NCBI GenBank assembly: GCA_011839185.1
Contig: GCA_011839185.1_3918.1
Source: a phage
Length of the DNA stretch: 64,000 bases
Reading direction: 5' to 3' (one strand)
Shown here: piece by piece, positions 3,496 through 42,380 of the stretch
How the letters are laid out: each line of letters begins with the position of its first letter
How positions within the stretch are numbered: position 1 is the first letter of the stretch
Program-made: the position numbers and the translations under genes
Notes under the pieces: model-generated
The model's input: only the letters and a program-made list of their open reading frames with translations
Told to the model about the DNA's origin: nothing
The model's database searches: none

Positions 3496-4565
3496 TTAAC
3501 CAACACCCAATCTTTTTAGGTGGTGAGAGAAAGACATTTGACTCACTTAACAAGCACTACCCAAAAATCTTTGAGCTATATAAACAACAAAAAGCGCAAG
3601 ACTGGTCAGAAGATGAGTTCCCTTTTGAACAATCACGTCTTGATTTTGAGAGTGTGCCAGCATCAATGTCAGGTGTAATGCTTGAGATTCTTAAGTGGCA
3701 GTGGGAAGCAGATACCCAAGTTGCTAAGAGTTTAGCGTTTGCTTTTGCACCATTCATCTCTGATGACATTTATGCAACTGCAATTATGAAGCAGTCTGAG
3801 ATTGAAAACTTACATGCTCTGACTTACTCAGAGATTGTAAGGCAATGTATTAAAAACCCTGAAACAATCTTAGATGAGATTAACCAGAACATTGCTGTAC
3901 AAGACCGATTAAAAACTGTGAATCGTGTTCTTGAAGAATTGCTGGATGAAGGTATAAACTATCGACTGAGTTATGTCCGTGACTCACTTCTGGACAAAGA
4001 CCCTTTACACTTCCATAAAGTGATTCTGAAAGGTCTATTTGCAGTGACTGCACTGGAAGGTATATCTTTTATGGCATCCTTTGCATGTACTTTTGCACTT
4101 GATGCTCAAGATAAATTTCAGGGTATTGCTCAAGCTGTTCAGAAAATTATGCTTGATGAAATCCTTCACACTAAAATTGATATTGAAGTTTTAAAAGAAA
4201 CTTTAAGAGACGATGAGTGGCAAAAAGCTTTCCAACAAATTCTTCCAGAGATTAAAGTAATCTTAGATGAAGTAGTTGAAAGCGAAGAAAAATGGTCGTA
4301 TTATATCTTCTCCGAAGGACGTGCTGTAGTTGGTTTAAATACAAAGCTTCTCCATGAGTGGGTTTACTATAATGCTGCCCCACTGTATGATATGTTTGGC
4401 ATTCCCAGAGATTTTGTAGCTCCTAAAGAACCACCTCTGAAGTATATGATTAAGAAGATGGAAATTGATAAAGAGCAGAATGCTAATCAGGAGCAACAGA
4501 ACGGCGCGTATTTATTGAATACTGTTGTAGATGATTTGAATAGTGGATTTTTAGAGGTTCCTTAA
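3492..4565 (+). CDS. nrdB: ribonucleotide reductase class Ia small subunit
   Basis: 357 aa immediately downstream of nrdA; size and helical, acidic composition fit the di-iron R2 subunit. Confidence 0.8.
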   Translation: MINQHPIFLGGERKTFDSLNKHYPKIFELYKQQKAQDWSEDEFPFEQSRLDFESVPASMSGVMLEILKWQWEADTQVAKSLAFAFAPFISDDIYATAIMKQSEIENLHALTYSEIVRQCIKNPETILDEINQNIAVQDRLKTVNRVLEELLDEGINYRLSYVRDSLLDKDPLHFHKVILKGLFAVTALEGISFMASFACTFALDAQDKFQGIAQAVQKIMLDEILHTKIDIEVLKETLRDDEWQKAFQQILPEIKVILDEVVESEEKWSYYIFSEGRAVVGLNTKLLHEWVYYNAAPLYDMFGIPRDFVAPKEPPLKYMIKKMEIDKEQNANQEQQNGAYLLNTVVDDLNSGFLEVP

Positions 4566-30380: not shown

Positions 30381-30798
30381 AAGCTCTCCGAATAACCCTA
30401 TTAAGCATCTCTAAAGTCAGCTTTCCAGACTCTAAATGTGGCATAACAAGCTTTAAAGCTTTTTCAACATCATGCACAACATCTATTATACCTTCTTCAT
30501 AGGCTTCTACAAGGATATCTTTTACGTTTTGTTGGTTATCTTTTTGTGGTATTGCTAGACGCATATCAAACTCATTTGCTTGAGGGTGGTCACTACCATG
30601 CCAGTAACCATCTTTGTTAAAGCTGATGTAGTCACCGTGGTAAAAGTGTACACCATTAGCTTTAAACTTCTCCAGCACAAGGCATTGAATTGGGTATTCA
30701 GTATTCCACTCCCTGACTCCTATAACCTTCACTGTTGCGATGTACTCCTGTGTTTTTGCATCTACGATGTCAAGTTCTTGACCAGCTATGATTTGCAT
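30370..30798 (-). CDS. hypothetical protein
   Basis: ORF track 142 aa. Confidence 0.5.
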   Translation of the reverse strand: MQIIAGQELDIVDAKTQEYIATVKVIGVREWNTEYPIQCLVLEKFKANGVHFYHGDYISFNKDGYWHGSDHPQANEFDMRLAIPQKDNQQNVKDILVEAYEEGIIDVVHDVEKALKLVMPHLESGKLTLEMLNRVIRRAYEN

Positions 30799-30851
30799 AT
30801 TCGCTACCTTCTAAGTTCTACAAAGGGGCTATCAAGTAACCCCTCAAGCTA

Positions 30852-31076
30852 CTACTCAGACTTTTCAGTCTTCTTATCGGATTTCTTACTAGTCTTCTTC
30901 TCAGCTTTCTGTTCAGGTTCCTTCTCAGAAGTTGCCTTGATAACCATATCAAGAAGCTCTGATAAGTCACTCTTCAGCAAAGTAACAGGTTGCTCATTGT
31001 AGAAGTTTTTGTCAAGATAGACTTTGAACTCTTCAATAGATGGAAATCCAAAAATTGGTACAGGTGTCTTAATCAT
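30852..31076 (-). CDS. small protein with Lys-rich C-terminus
   Basis: ORF track 74 aa. Confidence 0.4.
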   Translation of the reverse strand: MIKTPVPIFGFPSIEEFKVYLDKNFYNEQPVTLLKSDLSELLDMVIKATSEKEPEQKAEKKTSKKSDKKTEKSE

Positions 31077-37362: not shown

Positions 37363-37392
37363 TTGACAGACTCTACAAAGTTGCTCTAAAGT
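37363..37392 (+). promoter_or_regulatory. sigma70-like promoter
   Basis: TTGACA, 18-nt spacer, TAAAGT. Confidence 0.5.
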
Positions 37393-37431: not shown

Positions 37432-38847
37432 ATGAGCGAATTATTTAAACATGCGCACCTTCATGCAGGTCGAACTGAAAATGGTGCTGTAAACCATACT
37501 TCATCAATGTCTGCTCTTGTAGACTTTTACAAAGCTGCTGGTTCAAGCCGTAGTAACGTAGAAATCTTACCAGACCTGTTCTACAAAGCTTTGCGTGAGG
37601 ATGTTGATGTTGCAGTTCGTATTTTGCTTCATATGCGAGATGTACGAGAAGGTATGGGTGAGCGTAAAGCCTTCAGAACTGTTTTGCTTCAAGCAATTGA
37701 AGATAAAGTTTTAGAGTCTACGCAGGTTCTTCGCATTATGGATAAGATTGCAGAACTTGGTCGTTTTGATGACTTCAAAATCTTCGTAGGTACTCGTTTC
37801 GAGACAGATGCCTTCAAACATTTAGAAGAAGCATTACTAGACCCTGCAACAGCAGGTTTGGCGGCTAAGTGGTTACCACGAGTCAAACCACGTCATAAGC
37901 AGTTTGTAAAACGTTTCTGCAAGTTTGCCAACTTGAGTGAGAAAGAGTACCGCACACTGTTGTCTGCACTATCTGATACAGTTGAGCAAAAAATCTCTGC
38001 TAATGAGTTTGGTAAGATTGACTACAGTAAGATTCCTTCACTTGCTGCTGCACGTTACCAAAAACTGTTTAACCGTAAAGATGGAGAGCGTTACAAAGCT
38101 TACATCGAGTCCTTATCAAAAGGTGAGGCTAAGATTAATGCTGGTGCTGTTTACCCATACGATGTGATTAAATCTGTCAAGCATGGTAATGCAGATGTTG
38201 CTAATGAGCAGTGGAAAGCACTACCAAACTGGATGGCAGAAGGTGAAAACATCTTGTGTATGTCTGATGTATCAAGTTCAATGTCTTGGGTGAATTTTGG
38301 CTCCATTACTGCTCTGGATATTGGTGTATCACTTGCCTTGTATGTAGCAGAACGCAATACAGGTTGCTTTAAGAATGAGTTGATGGTTTATTCAACAAAC
38401 CCTCACTTCATCGAACTGAGTGGTGATTTACGAAACCGTCATCGTCAGGTGATGCGACACGTTGAATATGGCTCAACTAACTTACAAGCAGCTTTTGACC
38501 GCATTCTTGAGACAGGCAAAAGAAACAACTTGACTCAGAAAGATATGCCAAGTAAGCTTATCATCTTCTCCGATATGGAGTTTAATCAGGTTGATGGGGC
38601 TAACGGTCGTACAAACTTTGAAGCAATTCAGAGTAAGTACAAAAAAGCTGGATATGAGATGCCACAACTGGTATTCTGGTACTTAGCAAACCGTAATGGT
38701 ACTTGCGAAGTATCTGTTAAGGATAACGGTGTAGCAATGGTATCAGGGTTCTCTCCAGCCACTTTAAAAGCTCTGCTTGGTGGTGAGAAGTTTGACCCAA
38801 TCAGTGTAATGCTCAAAGCAGTAATGATTGACCGTTATATCTGGTAA
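37432..38847 (+). CDS. vWA-domain protein with helical N-terminal domain (possible Ro60/Rsr-like or DUF2828-like)
   Basis: 471 aa; MIDAS-type DVSSSM at about residue 279 with downstream T and D residues; ~270-aa helical N-terminal region; directly upstream of the tRNA array. Confidence 0.6.
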   Translation: MSELFKHAHLHAGRTENGAVNHTSSMSALVDFYKAAGSSRSNVEILPDLFYKALREDVDVAVRILLHMRDVREGMGERKAFRTVLLQAIEDKVLESTQVLRIMDKIAELGRFDDFKIFVGTRFETDAFKHLEEALLDPATAGLAAKWLPRVKPRHKQFVKRFCKFANLSEKEYRTLLSALSDTVEQKISANEFGKIDYSKIPSLAAARYQKLFNRKDGERYKAYIESLSKGEAKINAGAVYPYDVIKSVKHGNADVANEQWKALPNWMAEGENILCMSDVSSSMSWVNFGSITALDIGVSLALYVAERNTGCFKNELMVYSTNPHFIELSGDLRNRHRQVMRHVEYGSTNLQAAFDRILETGKRNNLTQKDMPSKLIIFSDMEFNQVDGANGRTNFEAIQSKYKKAGYEMPQLVFWYLANRNGTCEVSVKDNGVAMVSGFSPATLKALLGGEKFDPISVMLKAVMIDRYIW

Positions 38848-38865
38848 AAAGTTTTAAAAAGGGTA

Positions 38866-38894
38866 TTGACAATGTGTTTAATACCCTTTAATAT
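38866..38894 (+). promoter_or_regulatory. sigma70-like promoter
   Basis: TTGACA, 17-nt spacer, TAATAT. Confidence 0.5.
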
Positions 38895-38955
38895 GTTCTA
38901 CATAGAAACGAAATGAGAGCTTTTCTAAGATACTGAAAAATATTTTAAAAAGTTC

Positions 38956-38985
38956 TTGACAACCACTAAAAAATAATGTTAAAGT
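38956..38985 (+). promoter_or_regulatory. sigma70-like promoter ahead of the tRNA array
   Basis: TTGACA, 18-nt spacer, TAAAGT. Confidence 0.5.
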
Positions 38986-39011
38986 GGTTACATAGAGTTT
39001 GAAAAGTTTAT

Positions 39012-39088
39012 CTCTGTTTAGCTCAGCTTGGTAGAGCGTTCCGTTTGGGGCGGTAAGGCCGGAGGTTCAAGTCCTCCAACAGAGACCA
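39012..39088 (+). tRNA. tRNA-Pro (anticodon TGG)
   Basis: manual cloverleaf: acceptor CTCTGTT/AACAGAG, D-arm GCTCAGCTTGGTAGAGC, T-arm GGAGGTTCAAGTCCTCC, encoded CCA. Confidence 0.8.
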
Positions 39089-39095
39089 AATTAAT

Positions 39096-39173
39096 GTTCC
39101 AGTGGACAAAATGGTAAAGTCACCACTCTTTCAAAGTGGATATTTGAGGGTTCAAATCCCTTCTGGAACGCCA
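39096..39173 (+). tRNA. tRNA-Glu (anticodon TTC)
   Basis: acceptor GTTCCAG/CTGGAAC, anticodon arm CCACT-CTTTCAA-AGTGG, T-loop TTCAAAT, encoded CCA. Confidence 0.75.
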
Positions 39174-39180
39174 GTTTTGA

Positions 39181-39253
39181 CAGAAGACCAATTACAGCAA
39201 ACTTAATCTTATTCATCTGAAGGTAAATCGGACAAAGAAGAGATTTGGTCTGG
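39181..39253 (+). ncRNA. candidate structured element A (hairpin with conserved bulged closing stem)
   Basis: 5' CAGAAGACCAAT ... ATTTGGTCTGG 3'; AT-rich ~48-nt interior; one of four related elements. Confidence 0.35.
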
Positions 39254-39264
39254 TCATTAAGAAT

Positions 39265-39341
39265 TGCGGGTATAGAGAAAGGGCGTCTCACATGTCTCAT
39301 TAGCATGGTATCGGCAGGTTCGACTCCTGCACCCGCCTCCA
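39265..39341 (+). tRNA. tRNA with CAT anticodon (Met or Ile2)
   Basis: acceptor TGCGGGT/ACCCGCC with 1-72 mismatch, anticodon arm CATGT-CTCATTA-GCATG, T-arm GCAGGTTCGACTCCTGC, encoded CCA. Confidence 0.65.
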
Positions 39342-39347
39342 AATTTA

Positions 39348-39411
39348 CAGAAGACCGTTTACAGCAATATTTATTAAATTTTTAGCGGAAAAATTGAAAG
39401 ATACGGTCTGG
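39348..39411 (+). ncRNA. candidate structured element B
   Basis: 5' CAGAAGACCGTTTACAGCAA ... ACGGTCTGG 3'. Confidence 0.35.
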
Positions 39412-39424
39412 TAATACTAAACAT

Positions 39425-39501
39425 GGTTAGGAAGCACATAAGGTATGTGCGGTCGCCTGTTAAGCGAATGGCACAGGGTTCGAATCCCTGACTAACCGCC
39501 A
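39425..39501 (+). tRNA. tRNA-Asn (anticodon GTT)
   Basis: acceptor GGTTAGG/ACTAACC, D-arm GCACATAAGGTATGTGC, loop CTGTTAA, T-arm CAGGGTTCGAATCCCTG, encoded CCA. Confidence 0.75.
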
Positions 39502-39570
39502 AATTTAGGAGAGAAGCGATTGCTCACCGATTTGTAAGGTGCAAGTCCTTAGCCTGAATAGAAATCAAAT

Positions 39571-39658
39571 GTGTCGTTATCCCGTAGATGGTAGCGGTGG
39601 GGACTGTAAATCCCTTGTCATTGAGACTCGGTAGGTTCGACTCCTACACGGCACACCA
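39571..39658 (+). tRNA. tRNA-Tyr (anticodon GTA), long variable arm
   Basis: 88 nt; acceptor GTGTCGT/ACGGCAC, loop CTGTAAA, T-arm GTAGGTTCGACTCCTAC, encoded CCA. Confidence 0.75.
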
Positions 39659-39663
39659 ATAAA

Positions 39664-39741
39664 GGTTATGTAGTTTAATTTGGTTAAAATACTCCCCTGT
39701 CACGGGAGATGATGAGGGTTCAAATCCCTTCGTAACCGCCA
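39664..39741 (+). tRNA. tRNA-Asp (anticodon GTC)
   Basis: acceptor GGTTATG/CGTAACC, arm CTCCC-CTGTCAC-GGGAG, T-arm GAGGGTTCAAATCCCTT, encoded CCA. Confidence 0.8.
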
Positions 39742-39769
39742 ATTTTGAGAGGGCTATTTAGCCCCTCCC

Positions 39770-39797
39770 TTAAAGGGTTCTTACGAGTATCCTTTAA
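39770..39797 (+). promoter_or_regulatory. conserved hairpin with GTTCTTACGAG loop (copy 1 of 4)
   Basis: TTAAAGG-GTTCTTACGAGTAT-CCTTTAA. Confidence 0.4.
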
Positions 39798-39802
39798 AGG
39801 AG

Positions 39803-39876
39803 CAGAAGACCAAATACAGCAAGTTACTTAAAATTTCAAGCCAATTTAATTTTGAAAAATTTAAAACTTGGTCTGG
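39803..39876 (+). ncRNA. candidate structured element C
   Basis: 5' CAGAAGACCAAATACAGCAA ... CTTGGTCTGG 3'. Confidence 0.35.
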
Positions 39877-39889
39877 CTCAACAAATTTA

Positions 39890-40020
39890 CAGAAGACCGT
39901 TTACAGCAAAACTTAAACAATCTATTTCTCGGTAAAGAAAAGGCGAAGGTTCGATTCCTTCACTCGGCAGATGTCGAGTTGGTGTAATGGTAGCACTTAA
40001 GATGATAAACAACGGTCTGG
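39890..40020 (+). ncRNA. candidate structured ncRNA D: closing stem as A-C, enclosing a permuted tRNA-like module
   Basis: CAGAAGACCGTT ... AACGGTCTGG; inside in order: T-arm GAAGGTTCGATTCCTTC, 7-bp acceptor-like hairpin ACTCGGC-AGAT-GTCGAGT, D-arm GTGTAATGGTAGCAC. Confidence 0.45.
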
Positions 40021-40021
40021 T

Positions 40022-40165
40022 AATTATCTTTGTAGATAAGTTATTAAGCTTACCTGTGAGTATGCGACCACAAAGGGTGAAAGGGTAAATTCTAGATTTA
40101 AACCTAAAAAGGCACATCGCTACAGACCTTAAGCAAGTCTGGGTAGCTTATCTACAAAGATAATT
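40022..40165 (+). repeat. long inverted repeat (19-bp perfect arms) enclosing about 106 nt
   Basis: AATTATCTTTGTAGATAAG (40022-40040) and its exact reverse complement (40147-40165). Confidence 0.6.
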
Positions 40166-40169
40166 TAAT

Positions 40170-40245
40170 GGAAGTGTAGCAGAATGGTGATGCGGCAGAC
40201 TTTTAATCTGACAGGCGATGGGTTCGAATCCCTCCACTTCTACCA
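40170..40245 (+). tRNA. tRNA-Lys (anticodon TTT)
   Basis: acceptor GGAAGTG/CACTTCT, loop CTTTTAA, T-loop TTCGAAT, encoded CCA; T-stem imperfect in my parse. Confidence 0.65.
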
Positions 40246-40323
40246 AATTCACCCTTAACTGAGAAACACCTGCGCGGCTGGAAACACCCACTCAACAGTT
40301 TCTCTAACTAGGGTACTTATTCT

Positions 40324-40400
40324 GGTTCAGTCGCAGATAAGGTAATGCAAGGGTCTCATAAGCCCTATGAATGTGGGTTCGATTCCCATCTGAACCTCCA
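40324..40400 (+). tRNA. tRNA with CAT anticodon (Met, fMet or Ile2)
   Basis: acceptor GGTTCAG/CTGAACC, anticodon stem with three G-C pairs (AGGGT/GCCCT), loop CTCATAA, T-arm GTGGGTTCGATTCCCAT, encoded CCA. Confidence 0.7.
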
Positions 40401-40416
40401 ATTCGTTGGTGATATT

Positions 40417-40902
40417 ATGTTTTGTGCTAATAAAGATTGTGACAACAAAGCCGTTAAAGGTGGAAAGTATTGTTCACGCTCTTGTGCTGCAAGGGTAAAC
40501 AACAAGAGTCATCCAAAAAGAAGACAAGAAGGCTCTTGTCATTCATGTGGAAAGCAGACACCAAAATCAAGAAAGTATTGTGATGAATGTATTTCAAATG
40601 GTATTCTGAAACAATACAAAAACCCCGATGAAGAAAAGAAAGCGAAGTCACAACACGTTAAAAAGTCTCGTGACAAACTTAAGAGGGTTTTAGTTGATTA
40701 CAAAGGTGGTTGTTGCTCAATTTGTGGATACAATAAGTGCATAAAGGCTTTAGAGTTTCACCACTTAGACCCTAATACAAAGGACTTCACAGTAGGACAA
40801 AAACACTTCTCTATAGAGGTAATGAAGTCTGAAGTTGATAAGTGTGTATTACTGTGTGCAAATTGCCACAGAGAGGTACACGAAGGGGTAACAAAGCTGT
40901 GA
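40417..40902 (+). CDS. HNH homing-endonuclease-like protein with N-terminal zinc ribbons (start trimmed past the tRNA)
   Basis: C-terminal EFHHLDP...LLCANCHREVH HNH motif; several CxxC pairs; ORF-track start 40345 lies inside the tRNA. Confidence 0.65.
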   Translation: MFCANKDCDNKAVKGGKYCSRSCAARVNNKSHPKRRQEGSCHSCGKQTPKSRKYCDECISNGILKQYKNPDEEKKAKSQHVKKSRDKLKRVLVDYKGGCCSICGYNKCIKALEFHHLDPNTKDFTVGQKHFSIEVMKSEVDKCVLLCANCHREVHEGVTKL

Positions 40903-41295: not shown

Positions 41296-41437
41296 ATTAG
41301 TTAGCAGATTACTTAGACGACCTTATCGGGTCTCCGTGTAAGGAGGTGGTCTGTATCTCATGTTTTCCAGAACATGTAAATAATCTGAGAAGGGGCTTTA
41401 CAGTGTTGAGATAACAGGGTAAGCTTCGAATTATAGT

Positions 41438-41520
41438 ATGGGACGATGTTAAGACTCTAAGGCATGAGCAACGGCTTCCAACACCGTTTCAAAGGGGTTC
41501 AACTCCTCCGTCCCATGCCA
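41438..41520 (+). tRNA. atypical tRNA-like gene, anticodon CCA (Trp-type), about 7 extra nt between acceptor and D-arm
   Basis: 3' two-thirds parse canonically (arm ACGGC-TTCCAAC-ACCGT, T-loop TTCAACT, acceptor GTCCCAT, CCA) but the complementary 5' acceptor sits 7 nt too far upstream. Confidence 0.3.
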
Positions 41521-41533
41521 AAGTCTTATTAGG

Positions 41534-41621: not shown

Positions 41622-41843
41622 CCTAATAAGATTTAAAGCCAAGCTTCATTCGGATGTTGCTTTGGTATCCCTCGTGTATTGTCGTACACACTGATAAAGC
41701 ACCTAGTAGGTGTCACGGAGAAGAGATAATATCAAGCTCTCCAAAGGTTCTAGTCACCGGATTAAACAAGACTATGCAAAGACCTATTTAGGTCTTTTTA
41801 GAGGGCTTCTAAGGTTATTACAGCTTGTTGTGGAACCTTGTTG

Positions 41844-41868
41844 CTTAGGTTCTTAGAAGTTCTCTAAA
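41844..41868 (+). promoter_or_regulatory. conserved hairpin-motif variant (copy 3 of 4)
   Basis: TTAGGTTCTTAGAAGTTCTCTAA, about 10 nt upstream of a tRNA. Confidence 0.3.
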
Positions 41869-41878
41869 AAGATTTAAT

Positions 41879-42284: not shown

Positions 42285-42287
42285 ATT

Positions 42288-42376
42288 CAGAGGTCAAGTG
42301 AAAGACCGCTTTGAGTCAACTGAAGACCGTAACAAATTCCACGGAGTTGAGTTAGCGGCACAACTCCAGACCTCTT
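42288..42376 (+). ncRNA. candidate structured element E between tRNA-Thr and tRNA-Val
   Basis: 7-bp closing stem AGAGGTC/GACCTCT enclosing an internal hairpin GGAGTTG...CAACTCC and a GAAGACCG word shared with elements B and D. Confidence 0.3.
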
Positions 42377-42380
42377 TCAT

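Follow-up and report, generated by a model that had tools for sequence, protein, structure and literature searches.

Ro60-Y RNA particles are a classic and poorly understood form of RNA surveillance, of which few bacterial and phage examples have been described. Ro60 takes up Y RNA at the outside of its ring and the ends of misfolded RNAs in the central cavity. Canonical phage Ro60-Y RNA pairs are found in mycobacteriophages and in the Thermus phage phiLo (PMC4201824, PMC12135203), and the phiLo Ro60 binds two adjacent Y-like RNAs (Yrl1/Yrl2) as well as the host PNPase (PMC12135203; PDB 9KOP, 9L5Y). The tRNA-like domain of the bacterial YrlA RNAs is circularly permuted, with a T-arm, an acceptor-like hairpin and a D-arm in this order (Chen et al. 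2014, PMC4201824). A 2024 preprint on PhageMaP noted a Ro60-like structure for gp130 of phage Bas63, a protein that counters the Ppl defence; no RNA was identified, and the authors speculated that Y RNAs might be found among the annotated tRNA genes (PMC11482910). Here we describe a related locus in a stretch of 64,000 nucleotides of phage DNA (NCBI GenBank assembly GCA_011839185.1, contig GCA_011839185.1_3918.1; the window in what follows), in which a gene for a 471-aa Ro60-like protein (37432..38847, + strand) precedes a tRNA array interspersed with structured RNA elements. An earlier note, made from the sequence of the window alone, had drawn attention to this arrangement. We consider it probable that the gene and the elements together specify a phage Ro60-type ribonucleoprotein of a divergent DUF2828/DUF7788 clade.

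The window comes from a myovirus of the Felix O1 type, and its 2.8-kb region of interest shares 97-99% identity with many Felixounavirus genomes, Felix O1 among them. The 471-aa protein is the orthologue of gp130 of Bas63 (Escherichia phage JohannRWettstein), to which it is 97% identical and which occupies the same position upstream of a tRNA array. The protein side of the system was therefore already partly known, and it is the RNA family and its breadth that appear to be new: searches of the literature (Felix O1 with Y RNA, Ro60-like with phage, DUF2828) returned no description of these RNAs or of any other DUF2828-associated RNAs.

A predicted Ro60-fold protein

The product of 37432..38847 comprises an N-terminal helical-repeat ring domain (residues ~1-263, DUF2828) and a C-terminal vWA domain (residues 274-455, DUF7788). 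Both Pfam families are matched above the curated threshold (DUF2828 over residues 172-264 with 104.2 bits, DUF7788 over residues 274-455 with 148.9 bits), and in PHROGs the protein falls into phrog_850, labelled 'RNA-binding protein', with an E-value of 2e-184. More than 2,900 homologues were found, almost all on phage contigs. The earlier note had recognised a coding sequence with a complete vWA signature of the MIDAS type (an adhesion site that depends on metal ions), preceded by a helical region, and both observations hold: the open reading frame (ORF) is present, residues D279, S281 and S283 (DVSSSM), T349 and D381 are invariant in an alignment of 42 homologues, as are many basic residues of the helical half, and the structure model is helical up to about residue 263 and alpha/beta from residue 274.

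The model has the architecture that defines Ro60, in which HEAT-like antiparallel helical repeats form a ring and a vWA domain at the C-terminus closes it. When viral structure models (BFVD) were ranked by similarity to it, phage and giant-virus DUF2828 proteins came first and canonical phage TROVE/Ro-like proteins directly after. The TROVE/Ro60 similarity anticipated by the earlier note is thus borne out by structure and not by sequence profiles, which recognise DUF2828 and not TROVE; Pfam vWA_Ro60 is weakly matched by 11 of the 42 family members (best E-value 1.7e-4). Because Ro60 is invisible to the sequence methods, yet canonical phage TROVE/Ro-like models rank next to the family, the 471-aa protein is, on the structure model, a Ro60-fold protein of a divergent clade and not a member of Pfam TROVE. 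The family extends well outside phages. Its close structural relatives in BFVD include proteins of Pithovirus, Marseillevirus, CroV and mimivirids, and DUF2828 is mentioned for plants in the literature.

Four structured elements between the tRNA genes

The 26 tRNA genes of the array, all on the + strand, start at 39012, 3' of the 471-aa ORF. A 21-nt consensus, ACAGAAGACCNNWTACAGCAA, occurs four times in the window, always on the + strand and always within 39180-39909 (starts at 39180, 39347, 39802 and 39889; 0.05 occurrences expected). Exact matches to CAGAAGACC are found in the window only at 39181, 39348, 39803 and 39890, the four positions at which the earlier note had placed shared elements, some 330 nt downstream of the gene and on its strand, and NNGGTCTGG closes each of the four. 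RNAfold predicts a contiguous 7-bp helix, AGACCNN/NNGGUCU, then an internal loop with 5'-AGA opposite a single 3'-G, then a 4-bp outer helix.

Element 1 (39178..39256; 47.4 bits with the covariance model described below) exactly fills the spacer between tRNA-Glu and tRNA-Met. Its outer helix (39178-39181/39253-39256) is separated by the AGA/G39252 loop from the 7-bp helix (39185-39191/39245-39251), which is followed on the 5' side by UUA-CAGCAA (39192-39200). Element 2 (39345..39414; 55.1 bits) likewise fills the spacer between tRNA-Met and tRNA-Asn, with its 7-bp helix at 39352-39358/39403-39409, the trailing G at 39410 and an outer helix UUAC/GUAA. Element 3 (39800..39879; 45.9 bits) has its 7-bp helix at 39807-39813/39868-39874, G39875 and an outer helix GAGC/GCUC. 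The fourth element is a long form to which we return below. All lie on the + strand.

Two of these helices are supported by compensatory change among close relatives. The outer helix, found in the window as UGAC/GUCA, UUAC/GUAA and GAGC/GCUC, is 100% paired in 19 distinct Felix-group copies and shows double changes at three of its four pairs, although it played no role in collecting these copies. In the same group, covariation is also seen at the innermost two pairs of the 7-bp helix (ACCAA/TTGGT versus ACCGT/ACGGT), as the earlier note had observed. The closing helix that the note drew around them has to be revised: its covarying stem stands, and the CAG/CUG helix with an AAG bulge, although it can be drawn, is not supported, since it never varies and is therefore uninformative, and since it is incompatible with the better-supported outer helix. 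The 7-bp register is the one conserved across the family as a whole.

Neither ARAGORN nor the Rfam model RF00005 identifies any of the four elements as a tRNA, and the only tRNA-type signal that Rfam gives at the elements is a 9.6-bit tmRNA T-arm fragment (39944-39961). Rfam 15 returned no Y RNA-type match on 38840-40330 even at E ≤ 10, in a library whose inclusion of a YrlA model was unconfirmed.

A tRNA mimic and a possible fifth site

Element 4 (39887..40023, + strand) shares the closing structure of the others (7-bp helix 39894-39900/40012-40018, G40019) and differs from them in its interior, elements 1-3 having no tRNA-like domain. Inside a junction closed by a 5-bp stem (CUUAA/UUAAG), RNAfold places a variable-arm hairpin, a T-arm (39945-39961), a 7-bp acceptor-like hairpin (39962-39979) and a D-arm (39982-39996). 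The T-arm is canonical (GAAGG-UUCGAUU-CCUUC), the acceptor-like hairpin reads ACUCGGC-AGAU-GUCGAGU and the D-arm carries a GG loop, so that the T-arm comes first, the acceptor-like hairpin second and the D-arm last. Among relatives, compensatory changes have rewritten the acceptor-like stem (ACACGU/GCGUGU, ACCCUUC/GAAGGGU), and the T-arm is unchanged. When the element was re-permuted into tRNA order with an artificial anticodon loop, ARAGORN did not accept it as a tRNA; what makes it tRNA-like is therefore the order of its arms, the motifs of its loops and the covariation. Judged by these features, the interior of element 4 is a putative YrlA-like permuted tRNA mimic, by resemblance and not by identity as a tRNA.

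Directly downstream, a further structured RNA (40022..40166, + strand, z = -5.3) has a closing stem of ~24 bp and ends 3 nt before tRNA-Lys. One of its arms, 40120-40146, is a minimal copy of the motif (CUAC-AGAC-CUU-AAGCAA-GUCU-GG-GUAG), and both the ~24-bp stem and this mini-hairpin change in a compensatory manner between Felixounavirus and Mooglevirus. Position 40120-40146 is possibly a fifth binding site, a processing stem or both, and its place in the system is tentative; the long duplex could be a processing site of the RNase III type. This site and the tRNA-like interior of element 4 had been overlooked in the earlier note.

An RNA family linked to DUF2828 genes

To look beyond the Felix group we collected 80 viral loci with homologues of the gene, 65 of which we call distant, their proteins being only 38-47% identical to the window protein, and searched for the design [7-nt arm]-N3-C(A/C/U)GCAA...[complementary arm]-G. 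In the 65 distant loci this design occurs 83 times on the strand of the gene and 3 times on the opposite strand. At least one element is present in 49 of them, within 500 nt of the gene in 45, at a median distance of 68 nt, downstream of the gene in 37 loci and upstream in 12. Both the adjacency to the gene on the same strand and the stem covariation, which the earlier note had proposed to look for in homologous phages, thus extend far beyond the relatives of the window. Most of the distant loci have no tRNA gene at all, and the elements are therefore not a by-product of tRNA arrays.

In an alignment of 30 diverse short forms, G8, C17 and GCAA are invariant (C..GCAA in 30 of 30 seed sequences). 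The arms differ in nearly every lineage (AGGUUCC/GGAACCU, AGGAUAG/CUAUCCU, AGAAUGA/UCAUUCU, UGGUUCC/GGAACCA and others); the 7-bp helix usually conforms to 5'-AGR...YCU-3', with N3-CAGCAA single-stranded on the 5' side. Compensatory changes affect six of the seven helix pairs, with a covariation of 1.0 compared with 0.1-0.2 when the partner is slid. A shift of the 3' arm by one column leaves 43% of positions paired versus 100% in the true register, a percentage that is given by construction because the sequences were chosen for pairing. A covariance model built from this alignment gave 55 matches with E < 0.01 in the distant loci, all 55 on the gene strand and some of them copies that were not in the seed, and it finds the same four sites in Bas63. 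We also ran the search in reverse: scanning viral contigs for AGGNNNNTTACAGCAAAC gave 123 matches, 50 with a closing arm and 73 without, and a DUF2828 gene lies in the surrounding 5-15 kb for 27 of the 50 closed elements (on the same strand in 27 of 27) as against 3 of the 73 unclosed matches.

The family is modular. Its short forms measure 47-72 nt and have an A-rich interior, often with extra AGCAA repeats. Long forms with YrlA-like permuted tRNA modules occur at L018:3378, L018:3752, L028:3864, L037:5391 and L058:5579 (L numbers are our locus designations), and the T-arm/acceptor-like/D-arm module of element 4 recurs at L018:3752, L028:3864 and L037:5391. In L058 (6329-6427) and L060 (6192-6314), a tRNA core in the normal order of D-arm, anticodon arm and T-arm has its acceptor stem replaced by the family helix and CAGCAA; Rfam aligns 6352-6413 of L058 to positions 5-66 of the tRNA model. 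Further long forms carry unrelated domains of 150-260 nt, and the inner hairpin of element 3, UUUCAAGCCAAUUUAAUUUUGAAA, is similar to the inner hairpin of L060:8594. A conserved stem on the presumed protein side, joined to an effector side that varies, would follow the same logic as in Y RNAs. The window appears to contain four or five small structured RNAs of this widespread, previously undescribed family.

Two observations in distant loci deserve mention in their own right. In L024 (~3950-4000), L074 (~3900-3955) and L017 (~3955-4000), a CAGCAA hairpin or its 5' half is found just 5' of the ribosome-binding site of the DUF2828 gene, which at the level of sequence suggests translational autoregulation by the protein. 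In L049, the DUF2828 gene is preceded, ~1.8 kb upstream, by a permuted tmRNA gene (1838-2119; Rfam RF04321, 90.9 bits).

A candidate ribonucleoprotein and its alternatives

The proposal of the earlier note, a Ro60-like protein with cognate Y-RNA-like RNAs, is supported by these results, and none of the analyses that we ran against it gave a contrary outcome. Going by sequence and strand-specific linkage, the elements are very likely the RNA partner of the Ro60-like protein. We propose that (i) the predicted promoters at 38866 and 38956 would drive the transcription of the RNAs together with the tRNAs of the array, (ii) they would be freed by the processing of the flanking tRNAs, namely RNase P cleavage at the 5' end of the downstream tRNA and 3' trimming of the upstream one, (iii) the ring protein would bind both the CAGCAA loop and the helix that closes the element, just as the Y RNA stem and CGAA bulge are bound by Ro60, (iv) the variable module may gate the ring or tether an RNA enzyme of the host (element 4, with its tRNA mimic, would perhaps recruit a tRNA-recognising factor or a nuclease such as PNPase), and (v) RNA surveillance, decay or repair would be redirected during infection.

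Several points weigh against this interpretation. Binding, expression and processing of the RNAs are inferred. On the protein side, Pfam TROVE is unmatched at E ≤ 10 in 42 of 42 family members, PDB searches with phmmer (sequence) and hmmsearch (profile) came back empty, and hhalign of the family profile with human Ro60 (a sequence identical to 9nen_A) aligns only vWA residues 266-382, with 23% probability, placing DVSSSM opposite DVSASM of human Ro60. On the RNA side, the elements match no Rfam Y RNA model, and at the gathering threshold no Rfam family covers them in 15 related loci either. They carry CAGCAA where the described Y RNA and YrlA families have GNCGAA/CGAA, and membership in these families is not supported. 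Sixteen of the 65 distant loci gave no strict match, most of these showing relaxed variants (one mismatch, two G-U pairs, or CGGCAA); 23 of the 50 closed elements of the reverse search have no DUF2828 gene in the surrounding 5-15 kb (hidden Markov model search); and the pairing statistics of the family alignment are partly circular. In a Felixounavirus relative (L005, 6450-6545), the T-loops of element 4 and tRNA-Lys(UUU) have been joined by a deletion that arose naturally; the junction shows an apparent recombination between T-loops. Elements 1-3 stay in place, element 4 loses its 3' half, the fifth structured RNA is gone and tRNA-Lys is mostly removed; the lost parts are thus dispensable, since their loss occurs naturally. 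The chief caveat concerns the anti-Ppl activity of the protein: whether expressed from a plasmid or carried by T7, gp130 by itself is enough for T7 to form plaques again on hosts with Ppl (PMC11482910). This activity, at least, thus does without the phage RNAs; it may be independent of RNA or served by host RNAs.

Three other explanations have to be weighed. The elements may be cis-acting sites on an mRNA or precursor RNA, that is, autoregulatory operators or hairpins that stabilise or process the 3' untranslated region or the tRNA precursor, and not stand-alone partner RNAs. This would fit the short forms that start 13-60 nt past the stop codon in many loci, the leader hairpins of L024, L074 and L017, and the window itself, where no promoter or terminator of the elements' own is evident. 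However, loci often hold several tandem copies, long forms carry tRNA-like or 200-nt modules, copies lie kilobases away from the gene or embedded between tRNAs, and the modularity is that of Y RNAs; autoregulation would moreover be a variant of the ribonucleoprotein model and not an alternative to it, because the protein would still have to bind the motif. We regard purely cis-acting sites as unlikely. A second possibility is that the protein acts without RNA, its vWA/MIDAS face binding and blocking a host protein such as Ppl, and that the RNAs are unrelated and merely co-located. The rescue of T7 by gp130 alone on Ppl hosts (PMC11482910) would be explained directly, the MIDAS residues are invariant and such sites typically bind proteins, and no TROVE sequence motif was found; set beside the same-strand association of the elements with DUF2828 genes in distant loci, we find this reading rather improbable. 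Finally, that the elements are degenerate debris of the tRNA array which itself serves no function, be it spacers, pseudo-tRNAs, scars of recombination or mobile repeats, could draw on their location, the tRNA arms of element 4, the T-loop-mediated fusion of element 4 to tRNA-Lys in L005 and the HNH endonuclease gene inserted nearby, but compensatory covariation in three separate helices, the invariance of the unpaired CAGCAA, the strict one-strandedness and the copies beside DUF2828 genes in tRNA-free loci make it highly improbable.

The ribonucleoprotein interpretation would give a concrete candidate RNA partner to a protein whose ability to defeat Ppl had already emerged from a genetic screen. 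It would also turn DUF2828, with its thousands of phage members and its giant-virus and eukaryotic relatives, into a candidate ribonucleoprotein family with a simple and conserved recognition element, a 7-bp stem followed by CAGCAA. The modular interiors, above all the tRNA mimics, suggest that phages may plug different effectors into one scaffold. It is tempting to speculate further, and this is a conjecture that we would rate as possible without calling it probable, that DUF2828/DUF7788 proteins are a large sister clade of Ro60 with their own 'CAGCAA-type Y RNAs', in which a universal protein-binding stem-loop is combined with swappable effector modules (permuted tRNA mimics, tRNA cores with the Y stem as acceptor, 200-nt domains), and that phages use these particles against host immunity directed at RNA or tRNA, Ppl included, as adaptors or decoys that can be programmed. 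Since giant viruses and eukaryotes also have members of the protein family, the partnership with RNAs might not be confined to phages.

Genomic neighbourhood and annotation

Upstream of the Ro60-like gene, a sigma-70-like promoter (TTGACA-18-TAAAGT, 37363..37392, + strand) is predicted by consensus match only. Two more of the TTGACA type, likewise consensus matches on the + strand (38866-38894 and 38956-38985), would drive the array of tRNAs and Y-like RNAs, and no terminator-like site was found on the + strand between these promoters and 40300. Felix O1-type genomes leave the RNAs unannotated or hide them under spurious small ORFs, an annotation that can now be corrected. In Bas63 (L081, MZ501086), the minus-strand 'hypothetical protein' genes bas63_0137 and bas63_0138 (30749-31023) overlie elements 3 and 4 and the fifth RNA and are probably spurious ORF calls over RNA genes.

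The array holds other irregular features. An HNH endonuclease ORF (40345-40902), which matches several PHROG HNH families and whose mechanical start lies inside tRNA-Met, sits between tRNA-Met and tRNA-Ile. It looks like a mobile homing-endonuclease insertion, since the two flanking tRNAs adjoin each other in Bas63. A second very long hairpin of ~30 bp (41788-41877, z = -4.2) is found directly 5' of tRNA-Leu; its 3' end, AAAAGAUUUAAU, resembles sequences just 5' of tRNA-Lys (40170) and tRNA-Arg (41219) and may represent a recurring precursor-processing stem. Positions 41436-41522 (z = -2.8) form a tRNA-like element with a 10-bp acceptor-type stem, AUGGGACG.../...CGUCCCAU, followed by GCCA, and a hairpin that resembles a T-arm; it is recognised as a tRNA by neither ARAGORN nor Rfam and may be a pseudo-tRNA or an atypical tRNA. 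A structured spacer at 42285-42380 (z = -3.8), closed by AGAGGUC/GACCUCU, contains CUGAAGACCGUAAC, which recalls the 5' ends of the elements; CAGCAA is missing from it, as is the trailing G, and it is perhaps a degenerate relative.

Comparison with known systems

The tRNA cluster of phage T4 encodes stable small RNAs known as species 1 and 2, RNA C and RNA D. It resembles the present array in that stable RNAs other than tRNAs lie in a phage tRNA operon and are released by tRNA-processing enzymes, as we propose here; to our knowledge, T4 has no DUF2828 gene.

For Bas63, the Y RNAs were guessed to lie among the annotated tRNAs, whereas our candidates are unannotated, non-tRNA elements between the tRNAs. 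The phiLo Ro60 is a canonical TROVE protein, its RNAs carry CGAA and their binding was shown experimentally; in the Felix O1-type phage, binding is a prediction.

Compared with bacterial Ro60 (Rsr), the window protein lacks the TROVE sequence signature and is ~65 aa shorter. The Y RNA motif of the 5' strand (GNCGAAN0-1G/CGAA in bacteria and phages, GGUCCGA in animals) is replaced by N3-C(A/C/U)GCAA, so that CAGCAA stands in place of the GNCGAAN0-1G of YrlA. The RNAs of the window have no Rfam match and are embedded in a tRNA operon, and most copies of the family are minimal hairpins of 47-70 nt with no tRNA-like domain. The pairing of the RNA ends, which characterises Y RNAs, is present in the covarying 7-bp helix and, in the Felix group, in the outer helix with its asymmetric internal loop. 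As in the Ro60 (Rsr)/YrlA/YrlB systems (PMC4201824), a ring with a vWA/MIDAS fold is accompanied by adjacent RNA genes on the same strand, often in several copies. As in YrlA (PMC4201824), the stem formed by the two RNA ends leads on the 5' side into a conserved motif and then into a modular interior, which in element 4 takes the form of a putative permuted tRNA mimic.

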